Of a DNA stretch of 64,000 nucleotides, positions 384 to 53,825 are shown in pieces. Made by a program: the position numbers and the translations under genes. The notes below the pieces were generated by a model. That model was not told where the DNA came from. It saw only the letters and a program-made list of their open reading frames with translations, and did no database searches. The DNA is taken from assembly GCA_951406725.2 (NCBI GenBank), contig OX597816.1, positions 93,806,001-93,870,000 on the forward strand, written 5' to 3'. Position 1 is the stretch's first letter. The number at the start of each line of letters is the position of its first letter. The stretch is from Octopus vulgaris. Taxonomy: Eukaryota.

Positions 384-2519
384 CTGTATCAAAGATTGAA
401 ATCCTTTCCTAGATAGTTCGCCTCCCAAACTTCAAAATTCATCTAAATACGCACTGAATGATCTCCCAAGAGTTATTTGCAAATGATTTTTAAATTGGGC
501 GTCATCCTGTTGTTAAAGCTTAATTAGGAATGTTCACCTGCAAATAAAACCTTATGGAAAAGACGAGACACAAAACTGTTTCTCGAATCCCCTCCGCAGT
601 TTTTCCTTTCCTCTTCCTTTCTCTTTCCATCTCATCTTCTTTGTTGTCAAGATTTTTGGCTCCCACTAATATCAATAACACGTTCCTATCCTTAGGTAGA
701 TGTATGGCTGAGAGGCGTATTGCCAGATATTTTATACAGGGGCTGATATCGAATGCACCGACTATCCACGATATATAACATCCATTCTAGGCACGATGTA
801 AATTTCTTTCTTGTCGCCATAAACAACATAAACATTATTGTATTGTCTAGTAAACCAAGACAATAAATTCAGCCATGAAATTCTTCTTAGATCCCAATTT
901 AATTAACCTACACAAACATTTATCATTGTCAGACGTAATAACCAAGCAAATTAGGTGCCAGCTCATGTTTGTATAAAAAGACCGGTTAACTTTATGGATT
1001 ACGTGTCATGGGTTCGAATTAAGCGTAGTCAAATGAATTTTAGCCTTTAAATTCATTTGACTGCGCTTAATTAGCAGAAAGTCGAAACCAGTCACTTTGG
1101 TAAAGTGATCTGCAAAAGGTTAGCACTCCTATCACATGAATGTATCGTTTATAATGATTGTCGCTAAAATAGCTTCTTTCATGAAGCATTTTATTGTTGT
1201 TGGTGGTGCTGTTTATCTTTGGGATAGCCCTGGTATAGCAGATCTCTGATCAAAGGTACACATACTTGACCAATCTGAAACGTCCTATTTTTAAGACTAA
1301 GTTCTGAAGAAAATTCGGCTGTAATTTTTAGCAGGTCAGCGTAGAAGTCAATTTCAAAGACAATGTAATATTTCCCGTGCAATTAGTTCCTGTGTAGTTC
1401 CTCTTGGCTCCTAAATGTTAGGCTAATGGGAGATGGCAATCTTTGCATGGTTTTACTGGTTTCAGTCGCTACATCGTTTTCCTCTATGATTTTAGTGCCC
1501 TGATATATGGTGCGTTCAGCATTGTTTTCCCAGAGACACGACTCAGTGGTTCGGTTCATACTGTTACCACCTCTTTGTTTTCTTCTTTTTTTTTGTATTT
1601 GATGTGTTGTTATTCAACAAAATTATTTTCCATAGACAAGGAATTTTAGAACAGCTGATGTTACACAGTTGTAGTTAATGACGTCCTGACTGAATATTGG
1701 ATCGAACAAGATTGTATTTCTTTCCCCGTCGCAGTTTTTTTTTTTTTGTTCCTTATAGTGGATGTTTTATTGTTTGAAATGGCTATGGGCAAGTACTCAG
1801 TCGTATTGCTTCGTCGAAGGGTAGACCGCTTATACGTTTGATTTTTGTAGTAGATATTTGTTTAATAAGAATTAGAAGTTATTCTACTATACATAGAGGT
1901 TGGTTCTTAAATATATTACATGCTGTCCATGCGAACCTGGATTTAGGTTTATAGTTGCTTTCAAACATTGGCATATTACCGATAAATAGAGACTATTATT
2001 TGTTTCATAAGTGTGGTAGCCTCTCCAATTTCTGCTCCTTCATAGTTATTCATAAAAATATCGAATGCTTCTATGTTCAACAGATTAAGACGGAACCAAC
2101 AGAAGATATAACGAAGTGCTTTGAGCAGTCATCAGATTTTCAGATGCGTGGTACAGACAACAAATGACTATGTTGTTATCGCAATAGTAATTATTGCTTG
2201 GTAACGGTTATCGCTATGACTGATTTAGTTTCGATCGAAGATCCTTAGATAATGTTCTTTTTTGCTTATTATAATTGTTCATATTTTTTCGTTTGTTCGT
2301 AAAAAGGATGAGTTTTTCCACTTGCACTGAAGTCTAAATTTTTGCCATACAAAGCATGAATGGACTCTTGGTTAGTAAAGTTATGTACCCTATCTCGATC
2401 AATTAATTTCGTTCCCGTTCTATATAATTCTCATTGCATTCTGAGCATGAAATCTAGTAGTGTAAATTATTCGTTTTGTAATTTTGAAATTCATAACTAC
2501 AATAATTTTGAATTTCTTT

Positions 2520-5530: not shown

Positions 5531-7218
5531 CCCCAATTATAATATAAAAACAATATTATGAGTGTAACTAACCGCCAAGAAACAGAGGAATGGCAACCAT
5601 AAAACTTAAATCAAAGCTGTGGCATGGTCAGTTGTCTTCACTAAATCTATAGAGTGAAAGTGAAAGACTGGTAAGGCCGCAATGTGAACACAACATTCAT
5701 GGTTGCTTCACACATATAGACATATTTATGTATGAATATATGTATATAAATAAATAAATGTGTATACATATACATATACAAAAATATATATTTATACGTT
5801 TGTGTATATGTATGTGTGCGTCTGTGTGTATTTATATATATAAACACGCACATATGCAGACACACACACATCTTATATATATAAAATTTTATATCTTTGT
5901 ATGTTTCCCAAAGATTGAAAAACACCTTCATGAGTTTTGTACAAAATCTAATGTCATACGAGAAAGGTCTGTATCTCGACTTTGGCTCCAACAAGGCGAC
6001 CTTTTTTTATAGCATGATTGTTTTGTTAATAATTATCACAGATGTTACAATTCTAACTAAATGCAATAGCTTGTCATTTGTGGAGTCATAAAATGGAAGC
6101 AATATAATTAAATATTCTGGTGGCGGAACTAGACAGCTTAACGTTTTTTTAGTATATTATTATATATTATACAATTCCGTCGACGCCGTCTTTGACTTTC
6201 ATTCTTCCGTGGCGGATAAAATAAAGTACCAACCAAGAACCGAGTTGATTTTATCGCGAGTTCTCTCCTCCAAAATGTGTGCTATTATACCTTAGTTCGA
6301 TATTATGTGTGTGTGTGAAAGTCTATGCATTCATGTATGTGTGCGTGCGTGTGTGTGGTCTATAGATATATATACATACACACACACACACACATATATA
6401 TAAGGATACATACTATATGTAATTTCATATTTATATTTATTTATCCTTGGCTTAACGGGATTAATGATTGTCTAATGACTTATGCATGCTTTTGATTAAG
6501 GTAGAAGAAAAATATAAGAAAGAATTCGAAAGCCCTCCTTCGAAGGTTCAATAGATTTTTTTTTTGTCTCTAATTGAATACTTGATATAAGCGCCCTTTA
6601 TTATCGATGGTTAACCAAGTTCTCTTCTTTATATGTTCTGGTCATTAGCAAGTACTGTGGGCTGTACAGCTCATACCGGCAGCACTTTATAACTGCAAAT
6701 TAAAAATTTCGCTAGTTTTTCATTGCGGTCCACATACCCCTTGTGAGTTACTTGAAAATTGATATACACAAGATCACTACAAGAAGTGAACTTTCCAAGT
6801 ACTATCCTTATGTCCTACTAAGTAGTGGAGTCACACAGAAACTCACATATATTTCATTTGATACATTAATCGTTGCATTGAAGAACTATTGAAATACAAG
6901 ATAAATATTTTGAAGATTCGGGTAAAAGCTATCCATATCCACTGCAGGCTTGTTAATGGCCGACGAGACCAATACAGCCCGAGGGCACCAACTGCAAGAG
7001 AAATTATATTCGTGTTTCCTTCTGCTCTATCACGATTGTCTCCATTTATCCTCTAGGTCAGTTCTCGAAAAGACTATACTGACGAATAGTGTGTCGTATA
7101 GAGTCTGAGAAATGACACGTTAATAAAAGCATCGAATCGAATATTTTATTTTATCAGCTTTCAATTATTGTCGGTATACTCTTATTAATGTCTGAGTATT
7201 CTTTGGTATAACTACAGC

Positions 7219-7620
7219 TTTCTGCATCCCTACCCAGATTTGGATGATCATAACTTTCAGAAAAATGGATATTTTTTAATGAAATTTTCTATGAATATGT
7301 GTTATATCTTGTAGATTTCGAATATTTAGTATTTTTGGGGGAAAGTGTTTTAGGAGGGAGGGAGCTGGAGGATTTCGGAAAATTCACCGGAGTCCACTTC
7401 AATTCGTCTTAACTTTTAAGAAAATGGATATATTTTTTAATGAACTTCTCTACAAATTTACCTCGGACTATGTAGATTCTGAGAGCATAGGAATTTTGGG
7501 GGAAAACTGTTGGGGGTTATTTTTAAGAACTGTTCCCCACTCGGGGATGCTTTGGGACAAGTCGTCCATATTTGTTTCATTTTCTCCGCTTTGTGCATTT
7601 GTGCATCCGTAGATTTCTAC
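7219..7620 (+). repeat. ~400 bp repeat, left arm of an inverted pair
   Basis: Reverse complement of 7993-8380 along its whole length. Contains an internal duplicated subunit (aacttt..gaaaatggatattttttaatgaa...tgtagatt). Ends gtagatttctac. Confidence 0.9.
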
Positions 7621-7992: not shown

Positions 7993-8380
7993 GTAGAAAT
8001 CTACGGATGCACAAACGCACAAAACGGAGAAAATGAAACAAATATGGACTTGTCTCGAAACACCTCAGAGTGGGGAACAGTTCTCAAAATAATTTCCTAC
8101 TTTTTCCCCCACCCAAAATTCCTGTGTCCTCGGAATCTACATAGTCCAAGGTATATATGTAGAGAATTTCATTTAAAAATATCAGTTTTCTTGAAAGTTA
8201 AGATGAATTGAAGTGAACTCTGGTGGATTTTCCGAAATTCCCTCCTAAAATACTTTCCCCATAAAATTTTGTATATTCGAAATCTACATGATATAACACA
8301 TATTCGTAGAAAATTTCATTAAAAAATATCCATTTTTCTGAAAGTTATGATCATCCAAATTCGGCAGTGGGGGCAGAAAT
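7993..8380 (-). repeat. ~390 bp repeat, right arm of an inverted pair
   Basis: Starts gtagaaatctac and mirrors 7219-7620. Confidence 0.9.
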
Positions 8381-8439
8381 CAATAGTTATGCCTATTCTT
8401 TTGTGCCATATTCTTACCAATAACACCCAAAATATTCCC

Positions 8440-12814: not shown

Positions 12815-13160
12815 ATGGCTCAGTGGTTAGCATGGCTCAGTGGTTAGAGCGTCGAGCTTACGATCGTGAGGTTGTGAGCTCGAATCCCGGACCGGGCTGC
12901 GTGTTGTGTTCTCGAGCAAAACACTTTATTTCACGTTGCTCCAGTTCACTCAGCTGTAGAAATGAGTTGCGACGTCACTGGTTCCAAGCTGTATCGACCT
13001 TTGTCTTTCCCTTGGATAACACTGGTGGCGTGGAGAGGGGAGGCTGGTATGCATGGGCGACTGCTGGTCTTCCATAAACAACCTCGCCCGGACTTGTGTC
13101 TAGGAGGGTAACTTTCTAGGTGCAATCCCATGGTCATTCATGACCGAAGGGGGTCTTACC

Positions 13161-13163
<3 letters not shown>
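12815..13163 (+). mobile_element. Full-length young tRNA-derived CORE-type SINE
   Basis: A box tggctcagtgg (duplicated at the 5' end), B box gctcgaatccc, and CORE-like gtgttctcgagcaaaacactttatttcacgttgctccagttcactcagctgtagaaatgag. Confidence 0.9.
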
Positions 13164-13214
<51 letters not shown>

Positions 13215-13576: not shown

Positions 13577-13919
13577 TATATATATATAAAACGTGTGTAC
13601 TGTGTTTATGTTCTTTATTTTTTTATGTAAATTTCAAACTTTCAAACCCAATTGAACGTAACTTTATCTGAAAGGGTTTGTCTCCCCTATGATAGTTGAC
13701 CACTAAGGGAAAACCGTATTTATGTTAGGTTTCGTGGAAATCCTGTTCTGCATCGCACTGGGACATCTACCGCACTGCGATAATTTTGCAGGATGTGAAT
13801 ATATCGCACATCTTTACGAGTTATATACATATATGTGTGTGTTTGTATGTATGTAAGGGTTCATGTATGTATGATTGTATGCATTTACATACTCTTTGTT
13901 ATATCTGTGTGTGTAAACG

Positions 13920-14160
13920 GGGTAAAGACTCCCTTCGGTCATGAATGACCATGGGATTGCACCTAGAAAGTTACCCTCCTAGACACAAGTCCGGGCGAGG
14001 TTGTTTATGGAAGACCAGCAGTCGCCCATGCATACCAGCCTCCCCTCTCCACACCACCAGTGTTATCCAAGGGAAAGACAAAGGTCGATACAGCTTGGCA
14101 CCAGTGACGTCGCAACTCATTTCTACAGCTGAGTGAACTGGAGCAACGTGAAATAAAGTG
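13920..14160 (-). mobile_element. 5'-truncated copy of the same CORE-type SINE, inverted
   Basis: Near-identical reverse complement of about 12922-13163. Confidence 0.92.
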
Positions 14161-14198
14161 TGTATACACAAAATGTGTGTATACACAAAATGTGTGTG

Positions 14199-14464: not shown

Positions 14465-14501
<37 letters not shown>

Positions 14502-14506
<5 letters not shown>

Positions 14507-14899
14507 CAAAATGGGACAAGAACCCAAAACACCCGGGCAACTAGGTGATACAAAAAAGGACAACAAAACATCCAGATAGACGATACAAAAAAATAGAGGA
14601 CGGGTCATTCGAAGCCTTTTATCCTCAGTCAAGAACCGGATCATCCTCGCAATTTCGGCTGATTAGTCTTGAGATTGCTCTAATCTGGCCAGCCCCAAGG
14701 AAAAACTAAGCTAAGAGCATTAGATTCCTTGGGAAAAAGCATCGAATGTATACGAAAACAAGGACGGAAAAACAGACGATGTTACACGAATATATATACA
14801 AAAATACAATAAAAATAATAATTATAATAATAATAACAGGACATAACAACAGGCGTCTTTTGACTAGGGACGAATTGAATTCAGCTGGTGTGTGTGGAA

Positions 14900-14900
<1 letters not shown>
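14502..14900 (-). mobile_element. (TA)n-embedded non-autonomous element, family A (copy 1)
   Basis: Homologous to 45830-46215, 44886-45015 and 24505-24670. Non-coding and T-rich on the minus strand. Confidence 0.85.
14613..14707 (-). ncRNA. Candidate permuted hammerhead ribozyme with kink-turn (family A)
   Basis: GGCUGG-CCAGAUU-A-GA-GCAAU-C-UCAAGA-cuaau-CAGCC-GAA-AUUGC-GAG-GA-U-GAUCCGG-u-UCUUGA-CUGAGGA. Confidence 0.6.
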
Positions 14901-24449: not shown

Positions 24450-24504
24450 ACATATATACTTATGAGACCAAAGTGTACATACGCCACTATATTTTTACAT
24501 ATAA

Positions 24505-24670
24505 AAAAAATACAGAAATGGGACAAGAACGCAAAACATCCAGACAGTTAGGTGATAAAAAAGGGACAACAAAATATCCAGAAAGACGATACAAAGAAAA
24601 CATGGACGGGTCATTCAGATTTTTTTACCCTCAGTCGAGTTCCAGATTATCTTTGCAATTTCGGCTGGTT
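24505..24670 (-). mobile_element. Family A element, 5'-truncated variant subfamily (copy 4)
   Basis: Minus strand: ccagccgaaattgc-aaa-ga-t-aatctgg-a-actcga-ctgaggg ... ttgcgttcttgtcccat. Confidence 0.8.
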
Positions 24671-24679
24671 ATAACTACA

Positions 24680-25389: not shown

Positions 25390-25838
25390 TATTACTTTAC
25401 TGCCCACAAGGGGCTACACACAAAGGGGACAAACAAAGACAGACAAACGGATTAACTCGATTACATCGACCCAGTGCGTAACTGGTACTTATTTAATCGA
25501 CCCCGAAAGGATGAAAGGCAAAGTCGACCTAGGCGGAATTTGAACTCAGAACGTAGCGGCAGACGAAATACCGCTAAGCATTTCGCCCGGTGTGCTAACG
25601 TTTCTTATTTCTTTATTGCCCACAAGGAGCTAAACATAGAGGGGACAAACAAGGACAGACAAACGGATTAAGTCGATTACGTCGACCCCAGTGCGTAATT
25701 GGTACTTAATTTATCGACCCCGAAAGGATGAAAGGCAAAGTCGACCGCGGCGGAATTTGAACTCAGAAAGTAACGGCAGACGAAATACAACTAAGCATTT
25801 CGTCCGGTGCTCTAATGTTTCTGCCAGCTCGCCGCCTT
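25390..25838 (-). mobile_element. Head-to-tail dimer of the Meta-like-domain SINE
   Basis: Two ~220 bp near-identical units joined at about 25605. Head ggcggcgagctggcag at 25836. Confidence 0.92.
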
Positions 25839-32324: not shown

Positions 32325-32722
32325 TCACAAGGCCAGCAATCTCGGGGGAGGGTGTAAATCGGTGTAATCGACACCAGTTTTCAATTTGTACACATTTTAT
32401 CAACCCCGAACGGATGTAAGGAAAAGTCAACCTCTGCGGAATTTGAACTTAGAACATAAAGACGGACGAAATACTAATAAGCATTTTACCTATTTCTTTA
32501 CTACCCACAAGGAGCCAAACACAGAGGAGACAAACAAGGACGGACAAACGGATTAAGTCGATTATACTGACCCCAGTGCGTAACTGGTACTTATTTAATC
32601 GACCCCGAAAAGATGAAAGGCAAAGTCGACCTCGGCGGAATTTGCACTCAGAACGTAATGGCAGACGAAATACTGCTAAGCATTCCGCCCAGCGTGCTAA
32701 CGATTCTGCCAGCTCACCGCCG
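32325..32722 (-). mobile_element. Two abutting SINE copies (Meta-like domain family)
   Basis: Same family as 25390-25838. Junction at about 32490. Confidence 0.9.
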
Positions 32723-39134: not shown

Positions 39135-39137
<3 letters not shown>

Positions 39138-39601
39138 CCATCGTCCATCTTTCTTTTCCTCGCGTGACCATCTTTCGTTTCCTGCACGGACGTTTAAAAG
39201 AACGGACGTGTTTTTCTCTTTCTTCTCTCTTTTCTCTTTAAAAGTAAATGTTCCCCCAGTGTTCACTATTTTCCTCTCGTCCTGGTCTAACGATCCTCCA
39301 TGTTTCTTTTCGTTCGGTTTCCTTGTATGTCTCCGTCATTTTTTTGTTCCTAGCTTTGACCCTCCATAAATCCTAAATTTTATTTTAGAATTTATGGGAG
39401 CAACTGTCTTTGAAGTCTCATATTGTTGTTAAATTCTCGAAATGAGGAGTAGATAGACAGCTGGCAGCTGATGAAGGGTTTTTTCTCTGTGTTTACTTGT
39501 CCTGTTTTCCAGTTTTCTCGTTGTTTACGTATTTCACTCGTTTTTCCCTCGTTTGTTTACGTATTTTATATTATTTGCACCGTTGGTGACGTTCTGTACC
39601 C

Positions 39602-39603
<2 letters not shown>
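39135..39603 (+). mobile_element. (TA)n-embedded non-autonomous element, family B
   Basis: Pyrimidine-rich non-coding insert between (TA)n and (TATG)n. 3' end cgttctgtacccat resembles the family A end cgttcttgtcccat. Confidence 0.65.
39358..39480 (+). ncRNA. Candidate permuted hammerhead ribozyme (family B)
   Basis: GACCCU-[hairpin]-GAG-caa-CUGUCU-uu-GA-agu-CUCAU-A-UUGUUG..CUC-GAA-AUGAG-ga-GUA-GA-U-AGACAG-c-UGGCAG-CUGAUGA-AGGGUU. Confidence 0.55.
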
Positions 39604-39634
<31 letters not shown>

Positions 39635-44806: not shown

Positions 44807-44885
<79 letters not shown>

Positions 44886-44888
<3 letters not shown>

Positions 44889-45015
44889 AGATTAATCAGC
44901 TGAAATTGCGAGGATGATCCGGTTCTTGACTGAGGATTGAAGGCTTCGAATATCCCGTCCGTGTTTTTTGTATCGTCTTCTAAATGTTTTGCGTTCTTGT
45001 CCCAGTTTGTATTTT
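44886..45015 (+). mobile_element. Family A element, 5'-truncated (copy 2)
   Basis: (TA)n|tcaagattaatcagctgaaattgcgaggatgatccggttcttgactgagga...ttgcgttcttgtccca. Confidence 0.85.
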
Positions 45016-45024
45016 TACATATAC

Positions 45025-45091
<67 letters not shown>

Positions 45092-45642: not shown

Positions 45643-45647
<5 letters not shown>

Positions 45648-46215
45648 CTGTCCTTTTTCTCGCCCCTCCTTAATTCTTCTGTCCCTCTGCTTCTACTTCT
45701 CTCTCTTCTCTTCTCATATGACTGCCGGTCATCCTAGCTTCTTCTTTCTTGGTCTGACCGCCATCCATGCAACATCGATATTCTTCTCAGTGTCTGTGAA
45801 ATCTGTGTATCTCTGCCGTAAGGCTTCATTTCCACACGCGCCAGCTTAATTCAATTCGTCCTTAGTTGAAAGACACCTGTTGTTATGTCCTGTTATTATT
45901 TTTATTGTAGTTCTTATTGTATTTCTATTTGTGTAACTTTGTCCGTTTTTTCCGTCCTTGATTTTGCATACATTCACTGCTTTCTTCCAAGGAATCTAAT
46001 CTCTTACCTTAGTTTTCCCTTCGGGCTGGCCAGATTGGAGCAATCCCAAGAATAATCAGCCGAAATTGCGAGGATAATCTGGTGCTTGACTGAGGGTAGA
46101 GGGCTGCGAATGACCTGTCCTTGTTTTCTTTGTATCGTCTATCTGGATGTTTTGTTGTCCCTTTTTGTATCACCTAGCTGTTCTGATATTTTGCGTTCTT
46201 TTCCCATTTTGTATT
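45643..46215 (+). mobile_element. Family A element, longest copy (copy 3)
   Basis: Flanked by (TA)n and homologous to 14502-14900, with extra 5' pyrimidine-rich sequence. Confidence 0.85.
46011..46105 (+). ncRNA. Candidate permuted hammerhead ribozyme with kink-turn (family A)
   Basis: GGCUGG-CCAGAUU-G-GA-GCAAU-C-cCAAG..CAGCC-GAA-AUUGC-GAG-GA-U-AAUCUGG-ug-CUUGa-CUGAGGG. Confidence 0.55.
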
Positions 46216-46520
46216 ATTTATATATGTGTGTGTGTATGTGTGTGTGTGTGTGTGTTTGTATATATGTATGTATATATACATATAATTATTACGCAAAGTA
46301 ATTACTCAAATGTAGAAGTGTGCGTATTTTATAAAGGTTAAAATACCTGCTGCGTTTAGTATTAGTCAACTGTGGCTCAAATTTTATACGCTACCCCATC
46401 CAGAATTATTTGGCCTTCGTCTAATCGAACTGGGTGTGTATGAGTGAAGCGTGGAACTTTATATTGAGCCAAGATATTGGATTACATGTTGCTCCTTCCA
46501 TGTTGCACTTCTATACTATA

Positions 46521-50068: not shown

Positions 50069-50189
50069 TTCATTAATGAGAATCAAATATTCTCCGTATA
50101 GAATGCACTTCTTAGTTCCCAAGACATTTAAACTTGTGCGGGTATAGAAGTAAATGTTGGGATAAGCAAGTTAGAAAATGAATATATCT

Positions 50190-50400
50190 TCTTTTCTACT
50201 CTAGGCACAAAGCCCGAAATTTTGGGGAAGGGGCTAGTCGATTAGATCGCCCCAGTACGCAACTGGTACTTAATTTATCGATCTCGAAAGGATGAAAGGC
50301 AAAGTCGACCTCAGCGAAATTTGAACTCAGAAAGTAAAGATAGACGAAATACCGCTAAGCATTTCGCGCGGCATGCTAACATTTCTACCATCTCGCTGCC
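50190..50400 (-). mobile_element. SINE (Meta-like domain family)
   Basis: gaaaggatgaaaggcaaagtcgacctc...tttgaactcagaa...gacgaaataccgctaagcatttcg. Confidence 0.9.
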
Positions 50401-50868
50401 TTACATAATTTATATATTGATCTGTCTAACCTGCTTATTCCTTCATTTACTTCTACAAATATATATACATACATATGTATACATACATATTTACATACAT
50501 ATGTATACATACACACTCGCGTGCGTGCACACACACTAACACAATGAGCGTTCACATACGACATTCCCTCACAAGGCATTCGTGGGCCTGGGGCTACTGC
50601 AGAAGACACTAGTCCGGAGTGCTGTGCAGAGGGGCTGAACCCCGAAATCACGTGGAGCTTAACTACGGCACTTTACCATATATGTGTGCGTTCATACATG
50701 CATTTATGTATATACGCGTGCATGTTTGTATGCATGTATGTGTGTGTGATTATTATTAATAATTTTAACGCATGCGTGCACACACATATACATACACACA
50801 TAAAAACATGGCTATAGATTCTGAGTATTCTAACAGATCATAATGTGATCCTTATATTGTCCTTTGTA

Positions 50869-53083: not shown

Positions 53084-53245
53084 GACATACATATATACGA
53101 CGGGATTCTTTCAGTTTCCGTCTACCAAATCCACTCACAATGCTTTGGTCGGCCCGAGGCTATAGTAGAAGACACCTGCCCAAGGTGCCACGCAGTGGGA
53201 CTGAACCCAGAATCATGTGGTTCGTGAGCAAGCTATTTACCACAT
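52800..53245 (-). mobile_element. OR-like CORE SINE with an internal microsatellite
   Basis: Head matches 22610-22712 and tail matches 9660-9880. Confidence 0.85.
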
Positions 53246-53254
53246 ATATTTATT

Positions 53255-53825
53255 TCAAGTTTTGGCACAATGCCAGCAATTTCTGGGCAGGGGTAAGTCG
53301 ATTACATCGACTCCAGTACTCAAGTCGTATTTATTTTATTGTACCGAAATTATGAAATGCAAAGTCGACCTCGGTGGAATTCGATCTCAGAACGTAAAGT
53401 CGGACGAAGTGCCGCTAAGCATTTTGTCCGATGTGCTAATGATTCTGCGACATCACTATTTTCATTATAAGTTTACATATATTAATGGTAGTTCCTCAAA
53501 TCCGAGCAAAGGCGGCTCTACAATTTCCTGGTGAATAACCTGCACATTTGGTTTGTTTATAACGATCAAATTTTCTCCATCAATTCCACGCTATACCACA
53601 CATTAGATGTTGAAGTGATCGCAGACCCCGAAAGGATGAAAGGCAAAGTCGACCTCGGCGGACTTTGAACTCAGAACGTAACGGCAGACGAAATACCGCT
53701 AAGCATTTCGCCCGGGGTGCAAACGGTTCTGCCAGCTCGTCGCCTTTAATGTAAATAAGTAATGCTTTTTACTGGAAGCACAATGTCTCAAATTTGGGGA
53801 AAGGGATTAAATCGATTACATCGAT
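53255..53825 (-). mobile_element. Cluster of three SINE pieces (Meta-like domain family)
   Basis: Copies at about 53255-53450, 53622-53745 and 53770-53825. Confidence 0.85.

Follow-up and report, generated by a model that had tools for sequence, protein, structure and literature searches.

A repeat copy in a 64,000-nucleotide (nt) stretch of the Octopus vulgaris genome, the window analysed here, raises the question of whether a genome can record where an RNA has cut itself. The copy, a member of what we call family A, starts at 44886, directly behind a (TA)n tract (44807-44886) and at the first base of the 3' product that a predicted self-cleaving ribozyme would release. An earlier note on this DNA had read this start as a genomic fossil of ribozyme activity, and its placing of the boundary holds, including the real 1-nt ambiguity caused by the TA tract. 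We count positions from the base directly 3' of the predicted site (+1), with negative numbers upstream. The note had also pointed to a second copy (copy 4, 24505-24670), and there, by comparison with a subfamily relative at locus L019, homology does stop at about +6 (24673), 5 nt downstream of the site. Its remark that only two truncated copies were available needs amending: the window contains four family A copies, all of them 5'-truncated relative to the unit of 714-859 nt (the spacing in two-unit tandems), and two of the four end near the site.

The starts of family A copies were collected from contig C1 with two anchors, one near the 3' end and one at +17. From the first 100 matches listed for each, 100 and 99, respectively, were recovered. 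The 5' ends were called against 20 reference copies, and 176 copies were left after dropping shared copies and starts inside the anchor; starts beyond about -120 were unreliable and were censored, and both arms of a few inverted pairs were counted. Between +1 and +21 there were 62 starts in 2379 nt at risk, or 2.6% per nt, compared with 22 starts in 5362 nt (0.41% per nt, p = 6e-16) at -1 to -60 and 15 starts in 5810 nt (0.26% per nt, p = 1e-20) at +22 to +86. Further upstream, at -61 to -120, the rate was 0.24% per nt (10 starts in 4236 nt). The uniform spread of truncation points that the earlier note had named as evidence against cleavage is thereby rejected. The limits +1 to +21 were picked after inspection of the data; an unconstrained two-change-point fit also returned them. 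For the lower edge, +1 is the only position within 2 log-likelihood units, and the 3'-anchored set by itself places it at -3 to +1. Truncation of family A occupies a zone whose upstream edge is sharp; it is a step and not a spike.

Roughly half of the copies that reach this zone pass through the site. The zone follows the site and not the distance to the 3' end, since it holds the starts of 27 of 76 copies of the short type (126-129 nt) and 9 of 23 of the long type (169 nt). By junction class, assigned automatically and in some cases wrongly, 33 of the zone starts are at TA tracts, 11 at inverted junctions, 15 at other sequence and 3 at tandem junctions; they are therefore not confined to TA junctions. 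Head-to-head inverted pairs with breakpoints in +1 to +21 were seen at L099, L152, L198, L125 and L182.

Family C, for which 92 of the first 100 of 827 matches were examined without by-eye corrections, shows a pile-up in the same direction, though a weaker one. In its equivalent zone 11 starts fall in 1308 nt, versus 10 in 3062 nt upstream (p = 0.026) and 22 in 8873 nt downstream (p = 0.002), and its best interval is -2 to +16. A previous pass over 66 rows, in which de-duplication had been over-strict, gave p = 0.056 raw and p = 0.008 with three by-eye corrections.

The predicted ribozyme

The predicted site occupies the UH position within a complete hammerhead core, with CUGAnGA, GAAA and UH all found at a three-stem junction and the strands following one another in the order S (site), G (GAAA), C (CUGAnGA). 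This order is non-circular and differs from the circular order of types I, II and III (CGS, GSC, SCG). Pairing was analysed in an alignment of 32 sequences, 28 from family A and 4 from family B, a diverged relative that provides compensatory changes and of which 15 of 30 loci were parsed. GAAA, U16.1/C17 and CUGAnGA show little or no variation, while N7 varies. Stems II, III and I are paired at 95.6%, 100% and 97.4%, respectively, against 15-48% for slid control partners (maximum 47.6%), and 12 of the 23 stem pairs show two-sided changes. The A15.1-U16.1 pair is U-A in 32 of 32 sequences and the first pair of stem II (G10.1-C11.1) is G-C in 26 of 32. The covarying partner of stem II, with two-sided changes in 4 of 5 pairs, lies upstream of the site and not after CUGAnGA. 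The distal ends of stems I and II are linked by a helix that is 81% paired, and 2 of its 7 pairs change on both sides.

The bases that follow A9 pair with a strand further upstream, forming an outer helix (P0); next comes a hairpin (P5), and then G10.1. Both P0 and P5 are present in the minimum-free-energy (MFE) fold of a relative (z -3.9), and stacking of P0 on P5 would bring A9 and G10.1 back to adjacent positions. The predicted core is thus a variant of the known hammerhead, opened between A9 and G10.1. Kink-turns consist of a C-helix, a 3-nt bulge, tandem G-A/A-G pairs and an NC helix. By eye, the loop through which the linking helix runs on into stem III fits this pattern in families A and B and in a Naiad-type family, the bulge letters varying and the GA pairs staying; the fit is looser in families C and D. 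In the copy at 44886-45015 itself position 11.1, in the 3' strand of stem II, has mutated from C to T, and the upstream pairing partners of block G are absent from this truncated copy.

When a descriptor of the S-G-C layout was run over 1.46 Mb of loci and the window, it gave 101 matches, compared with 0 in reversed sequence. Families A (89 matches) and B (5) had been selected for; the other 7 fell in the unsought families C and D, one of them inside the window at 39423. By eye, C and D have P0, P5, the upstream stem II and the linking helix as in family A, in other letters, and the opened layout is common to four families in the Octopus vulgaris genome. Rfam returned no match at the gathering threshold and no hammerhead family among 32 weak matches, an exact pattern for family B matched only itself, and a metagenome scan gave 0 matches.

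Other folds were tried and rejected. If the bases downstream of CUGAnGA were used to build a canonical type I hammerhead, it would have no stem I partner and a U at 15.1 (by eye), and the downstream strand, taken as stem II, is not conserved in the long subfamilies or in family B. The strand order does not match hepatitis delta virus (HDV)-like, twister, pistol or hairpin ribozymes, judged by eye, and the Rfam search was blank for these as well.

Proposed cleavage and its alternatives

Family A copies have one common 3' end followed by (TA)n, and their 5' ends vary. The longest copies end in a TA tract or, via a short tail motif, in their own 3' end; the motif was seen by eye at the single loci L014, L019, L038, L043 and L109, its frequency not having been counted. 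Inverted junctions occur among the copies. In the genome of 2.8 Gb, two exact patterns gave at least 2500 and at least 1575 copies, with none for the reversed controls. Family A shows 5' truncation, partial tandems, inverted junctions, a (TA)n bias and a tail of 30-40 nt, hallmarks of Penelope-like elements (PLEs) of the Naiad type; PMC8557442 describes (TA)n targeting, 5' truncation, partial tandems, inversions and a short tail as Naiad traits. The common fold and habits would link family A to Naiad elements, whose class is marked by an open reading frame for reverse transcriptase plus GIY-YIG. That family A is itself the published octopus Naiad was rejected, as six probes, three of them family A motifs, matched no record in the available supplement of PMC8557442.

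Some loci add to the picture of the family. At L307 (about 540-700, plus strand) a family C copy that starts at +6 is fused to the 3' end of family A, which hints at a single enzyme for both families or at copies that target each other's tails; two families also lie side by side at L082, L123 and L069. L002 and L003 have at least 1.5 kb of upstream flank in common, the family A copy being inside a larger duplicated sequence. Contigs of runs X18 and X19 (labelled organisms B and C) also carry the family, which is therefore not confined to one species label.

We consider it probable that family A is a non-autonomous Penelope-like element, probably driven by Naiads, which inserts at (TA)n and whose RNA cleaves itself through the opened S-G-C hammerhead, with the reverse transcriptase (RT) often ending near the cut. 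Family A RNA would be cleaved at +1 by the predicted hammerhead, in which P0 on P5 would join A9 and G10.1, and the linking helix with its kink-turn-like loop would tie stems I, II and III together. A Penelope-type enzyme would prime at (TA)n, 126-169 nt downstream, and copy towards the cut. On cleaved RNA the complementary DNA (cDNA) would stop, or be trimmed, 0-20 nt short of the cut. It would then be joined to the target, in many cases by microhomology, and short copies such as 44886-45015 would pile up as a result; RNA that is uncleaved, religated or circular would let the other half pass through, giving long and tandem copies. The start distribution, the conserved core and the paired strands are observed, and from them we infer catalysis, a mobilising enzyme and a cause for the 0-20 nt loss. 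The step at the predicted cut would then be genomic evidence that cleaved RNA served as template, and the passage of about half of the copies through the site would point to religated, circular or uncut templates.

Several results weigh against this reading. The sharp peak at TCAAGA that the earlier note anticipated was not found: only 5 of the 176 sampled copies begin exactly at +1 and the mode lies 10-13 nt downstream, an offset for which cleavage by itself does not account. Since the starts are smeared over +1 to +21, the copy at 44886 is one draw from a broad zone and no proof alone. The precedent of the R2 element (PMC3774820) concerns mainly target-side deletions at 5' junctions and so does not account for the 0-20 nt loss on the element side. 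Enrichment in family C amounts to just about 2.6-3.4 fold, and its lower edge is loosely placed. Of 30 copies of the Naiad-type family, 27 pass through the site (2 start at +1, being neighbours in L327 and probably one event, and 1 at about +7), with an anchor at +8 that conceals most of the zone. An autonomous partner for family A was not identified; no open reading frame (ORF) scan of the family was run. The two-sided changes come mostly from one split, between the 4 family B and 28 family A rows, and therefore represent few independent events; the linking helix contains one pair that 14 of 32 rows show as an A-C mismatch, and the register of family B is off in that helix. Finally, according to PMC10085705, CUGAnGA is separated from its stems by no more than 1-2 nt in known hammerheads, so that activity of an opened core is not assured.

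The start signal alone cannot distinguish a 5' end made by cleavage from one made by initiation of transcription or by stalling of the polymerase. What stands of the proposed fossil is a set of starts tied to the predicted site, in family A as a step and in family C more weakly, with a zone in place of a peak. The start signal had been claimed to be independent of the folding argument; it needs the covariation alongside for its force and so is not fully independent.

The zone could reflect stalling or template switching of the RT in the knotted core of uncleaved RNA, the ribozyme fold being real. We regard this as unlikely, although the zone spans the strands of stem II', GAAA and stem III, its mode at +10 to +13 abuts stem II', the MFE fold has an alternative hairpin whose 3' arm covers about -1 to +16, and 11 of 20 automatic inverted calls cluster in the zone. 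The inner part of that hairpin is missing from the centroid fold. The stronger helices P0 and P5 and the core helices that the enzyme meets first show no excess of starts (0.26 and 0.41% per nt), and 30 of the 62 zone starts are at +1 to +11, where the core would already have been unwound.

A fixed RNA 5' end would yield the same step as a cut, and +1 might be where transcription from an internal promoter begins, or where truncated master copies start, with the short copies being full-length products of short RNAs. Pseudo-long terminal repeats (pseudo-LTRs) of PLEs contain promoters and start sites (PMC8557442). The step edge, however, coincides with the UH position of the hammerhead in two families with different sequence and recurs across several subfamilies, and we find such an origin improbable. 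Copies made from capped RNA starts can carry a cap-derived extra G; it precedes the start in 0 of the 5 copies that begin at +1, a small number.

About equally improbable, in our view, is a conserved but non-catalytic fold, such as a protein-binding or packaging signal, that resembles a hammerhead by chance or descent. Loops of the kink-turn kind often bind proteins, and the opened A9-G10.1 link falls outside the published alignments (PMC10085705, as far as its main text goes); against this, all core positions are retained in families that otherwise share little, with the variable N7 and the UH pattern of hammerheads. Least credible of all is a microhomology artefact in which AT-rich bases anneal to (TA)n targets irrespective of structure: 33 of the 62 zone starts are TA-flanked and AT/TA dinucleotides reach 0.19 per nt in the zone versus 0.08-0.15 elsewhere, but this 1.3-2.4 fold difference in opportunity is too small for a 6-11 fold rate, 29 of the 62 starts are not TA-classed, the AT-rich stretch at -61 to -120 has a rate of 0.24% per nt, and the family C zone opens with a C/T-rich stretch.

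Features of the window

Table 1. Positions of family A and family D copies, their junctions and predicted ribozyme parts in the window.
Feature	Position	Strand	Remarks
Family A copy under study	44886-45015	+	3' part of unit; from +1 to common family 3' end
(TA)n tract, 5' junction of this copy	44807-44886	none	target microsatellite
(TA)n tract, 3' junction of this copy	45019-45087	none	
Stem I 5' strand (block S, 3' of site)	44886-44891	+	partner 44924-44929; read by hand
Block G	44897-44909	+	stem II 3' strand, GAAA, stem III strand
Stem II 3' strand (in block G)	44897-44901	+	
GAAA (in block G)	44902-44905	+	
Stem III strand (in block G)	44905-44909	+	
Kink-turn-like 3-nt bulge plus GA	44910-44914	+	by eye
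Helix linking stems I and II, 3' strand	44916-44922	+	
Stem I 3' strand	44924-44929	+	
CUGAnGA core strand	44930-44936	+	
Outer helix P0, 3' strand	44937-44951	+	directly after A9
Family A copy through site	14482-14900	-	whole predicted ribozyme kept
Complete predicted ribozyme of copy 14482-14900	14606-14748	-	by hand; P0/P5 from MFE fold of relative
P0 5' strand (in 14606-14748)	14748-14734	-	
Hairpin P5 (in 14606-14748)	14732-14695	-	
Stem II 5' strand (in 14606-14748)	14694-14690	-	
Linking helix (in 14606-14748)	14688-14682	-	
Stem III strand (in 14606-14748)	14678-14674	-	
Predicted site (in 14606-14748)	between 14673 and 14672	-	
GAAA (in 14606-14748)	14656-14653	-	
CUGAnGA (in 14606-14748)	14628-14622	-	
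P0 3' strand (in 14606-14748)	14620-14606	-	
Longest family A copy of window	45644-46227	+	passes through site, between 46045 and 46046; stem I decayed
Family A copy 4	24497-24673	-	subfamily with compensatory stem I; start about +6
Tail behind 3' end of copy 4	24459-24489	-	about 30 nt; by eye
Family D copy	39136-39605	+	other sequence, same predicted ribozyme layout as family A
Predicted site of family D copy	before 39423	+	
GAAA of family D copy	39439-39442	+	
CUGAnGA of family D copy	39468-39474	+	

The motif in the tail of copy 4 is, by eye, the one that opens the unit in tandem copies. Relatives of the family D copy were found at L079, L082, L123 and L223, the one at L123 starting at about +1 to +2 after a TA tract. 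Downstream of the match at 2102 in L327, and in the flank of L020, there is another repeat with what seems to be a canonical short hammerhead on the opposite strand. The window also contains a dispersed, abundant repeat family, probably resembling short interspersed nuclear elements, at 25390-25822 (with a 217-nt tandem duplication), 32367-32721, 50184-50416 and 53244-53757. Neighbouring inverted repeat pairs lie at 7205-7620 and 7993-8393 (83% identical) and at 12921-13179 and 13900-14161 (96%).

Comparison with known ribozymes and retroelements

The nearest known relatives of the predicted ribozyme are the type-SGC hammerheads of Eckert et al. 2023 (PMC10085705). That paper reports that type-SGC (HRIMA-1) and CSG hammerheads are active, type SGC cleaving in vitro, and that they come from metatranscriptomes and metagenomes, with none in genomes of known organisms. 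Family A resembles type SGC in its S-G-C order, its full core, the helix that joins the far sides of stems I and II, and the short linker from stem I to stem II, which is 5 nt in family A and typically 3 nt in type SGC. Family A differs in having its stem II strand upstream, P0 and P5 between A9 and G10.1, and a kink-turn-like loop joining the linking helix to stem III. The same text assumes that CUGAnGA and its stem II strand are inseparable (an unbroken block C). Family A lacks this block, and its ribozyme is therefore not filed as type SGC. The predicted opened core with its stacked four-way junction would lie outside the six published permutations and is set apart by the main-text description of that paper, which assumed that such a connectivity could not occur. 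Whereas type SGC is described there only from metatranscriptomes of unknown hosts, the layout of family A is present in thousands of copies in an animal genome; the complete predicted ribozyme at 14606-14748 spans 143 nt. In the open-access literature we found neither the opened hammerhead topology nor any animal retroelement with a non-circular hammerhead described.

The Naiads themselves may carry the same fold. Craig et al. 2021 (PMC8557442) state that Naiads are without canonical hammerheads, flag eight 'half cores' that include Naiad_Ovul, and call the role of hammerheads in PLEs unclear. In their supplement, the published 3' ends of Naiad_Ovul and Naiad_Obim fit the opened layout by eye, unscored. 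The same holds for three almost identical records that precede Naiad_Aacu, Naiad_Anas and Naiad-1_Movir, coral-type sequences with recognisable P0 and P5 and with an internal loop in place of the kink-turn, and for one further record in part 8, which fits the opened S-G-C layout. For two nematode records, ahead of Naiad-3_Nbra and Naiad_Hpol, type CSG is the layout that fits by eye, stems I and II being connected by a long helix; no such fold was seen by eye in the 3' ends before Naiad_Parc, Naiad_Smim and Naiad-3_Dst in that supplement. A 19-letter motif from the published octopus Naiad 3' ends occurs 434 times in the Octopus vulgaris genome, and the sequence at L310 continues like the published octopus Naiad 3' untranslated region. 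Among 30 matches of the Naiad-type family there was no ORF-linked copy within 1.5 kb. Family A, unlike Naiad, is a short unit.

With somewhat less assurance than for the mechanism, we lean towards the view that the opened topology is the standard ribozyme of many Naiads, from cnidarians to cephalopods, and of abundant non-autonomous families, that nematode Naiads use type CSG, and that copy starts record cleavage in vivo. If this is true, Naiads do not lack hammerheads, and the failure of earlier hammerhead searches in Naiads is explained.

The 5' HDV-like ribozyme of R2 offers a parallel, as its cut site has likewise been traced in genomic 5' junctions and microhomology priming is described (PMC3774820, passages available). 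R2 uses another ribozyme class, and its cut sets the element's 5' end, with variation mainly on the target side; the family A site lies 126-169 nt from the 3' end and is passed by about half of the copies.

Non-LTR retrozymes have type I cores and units of 150-400 nt. The passages found in bioRxiv 10.64898/2026.07.22.740005 tie them to PLE pseudo-LTRs and do not mention octopus or permuted ribozymes. As far as those passages describe them, family A resembles these retrozymes in being non-autonomous, hammerhead-bearing and PLE-linked, with tandems possible, and it differs from them in that its copies are mainly dispersed and truncated at the 5' end, its unit is longer and its predicted ribozyme is non-circularly permuted.
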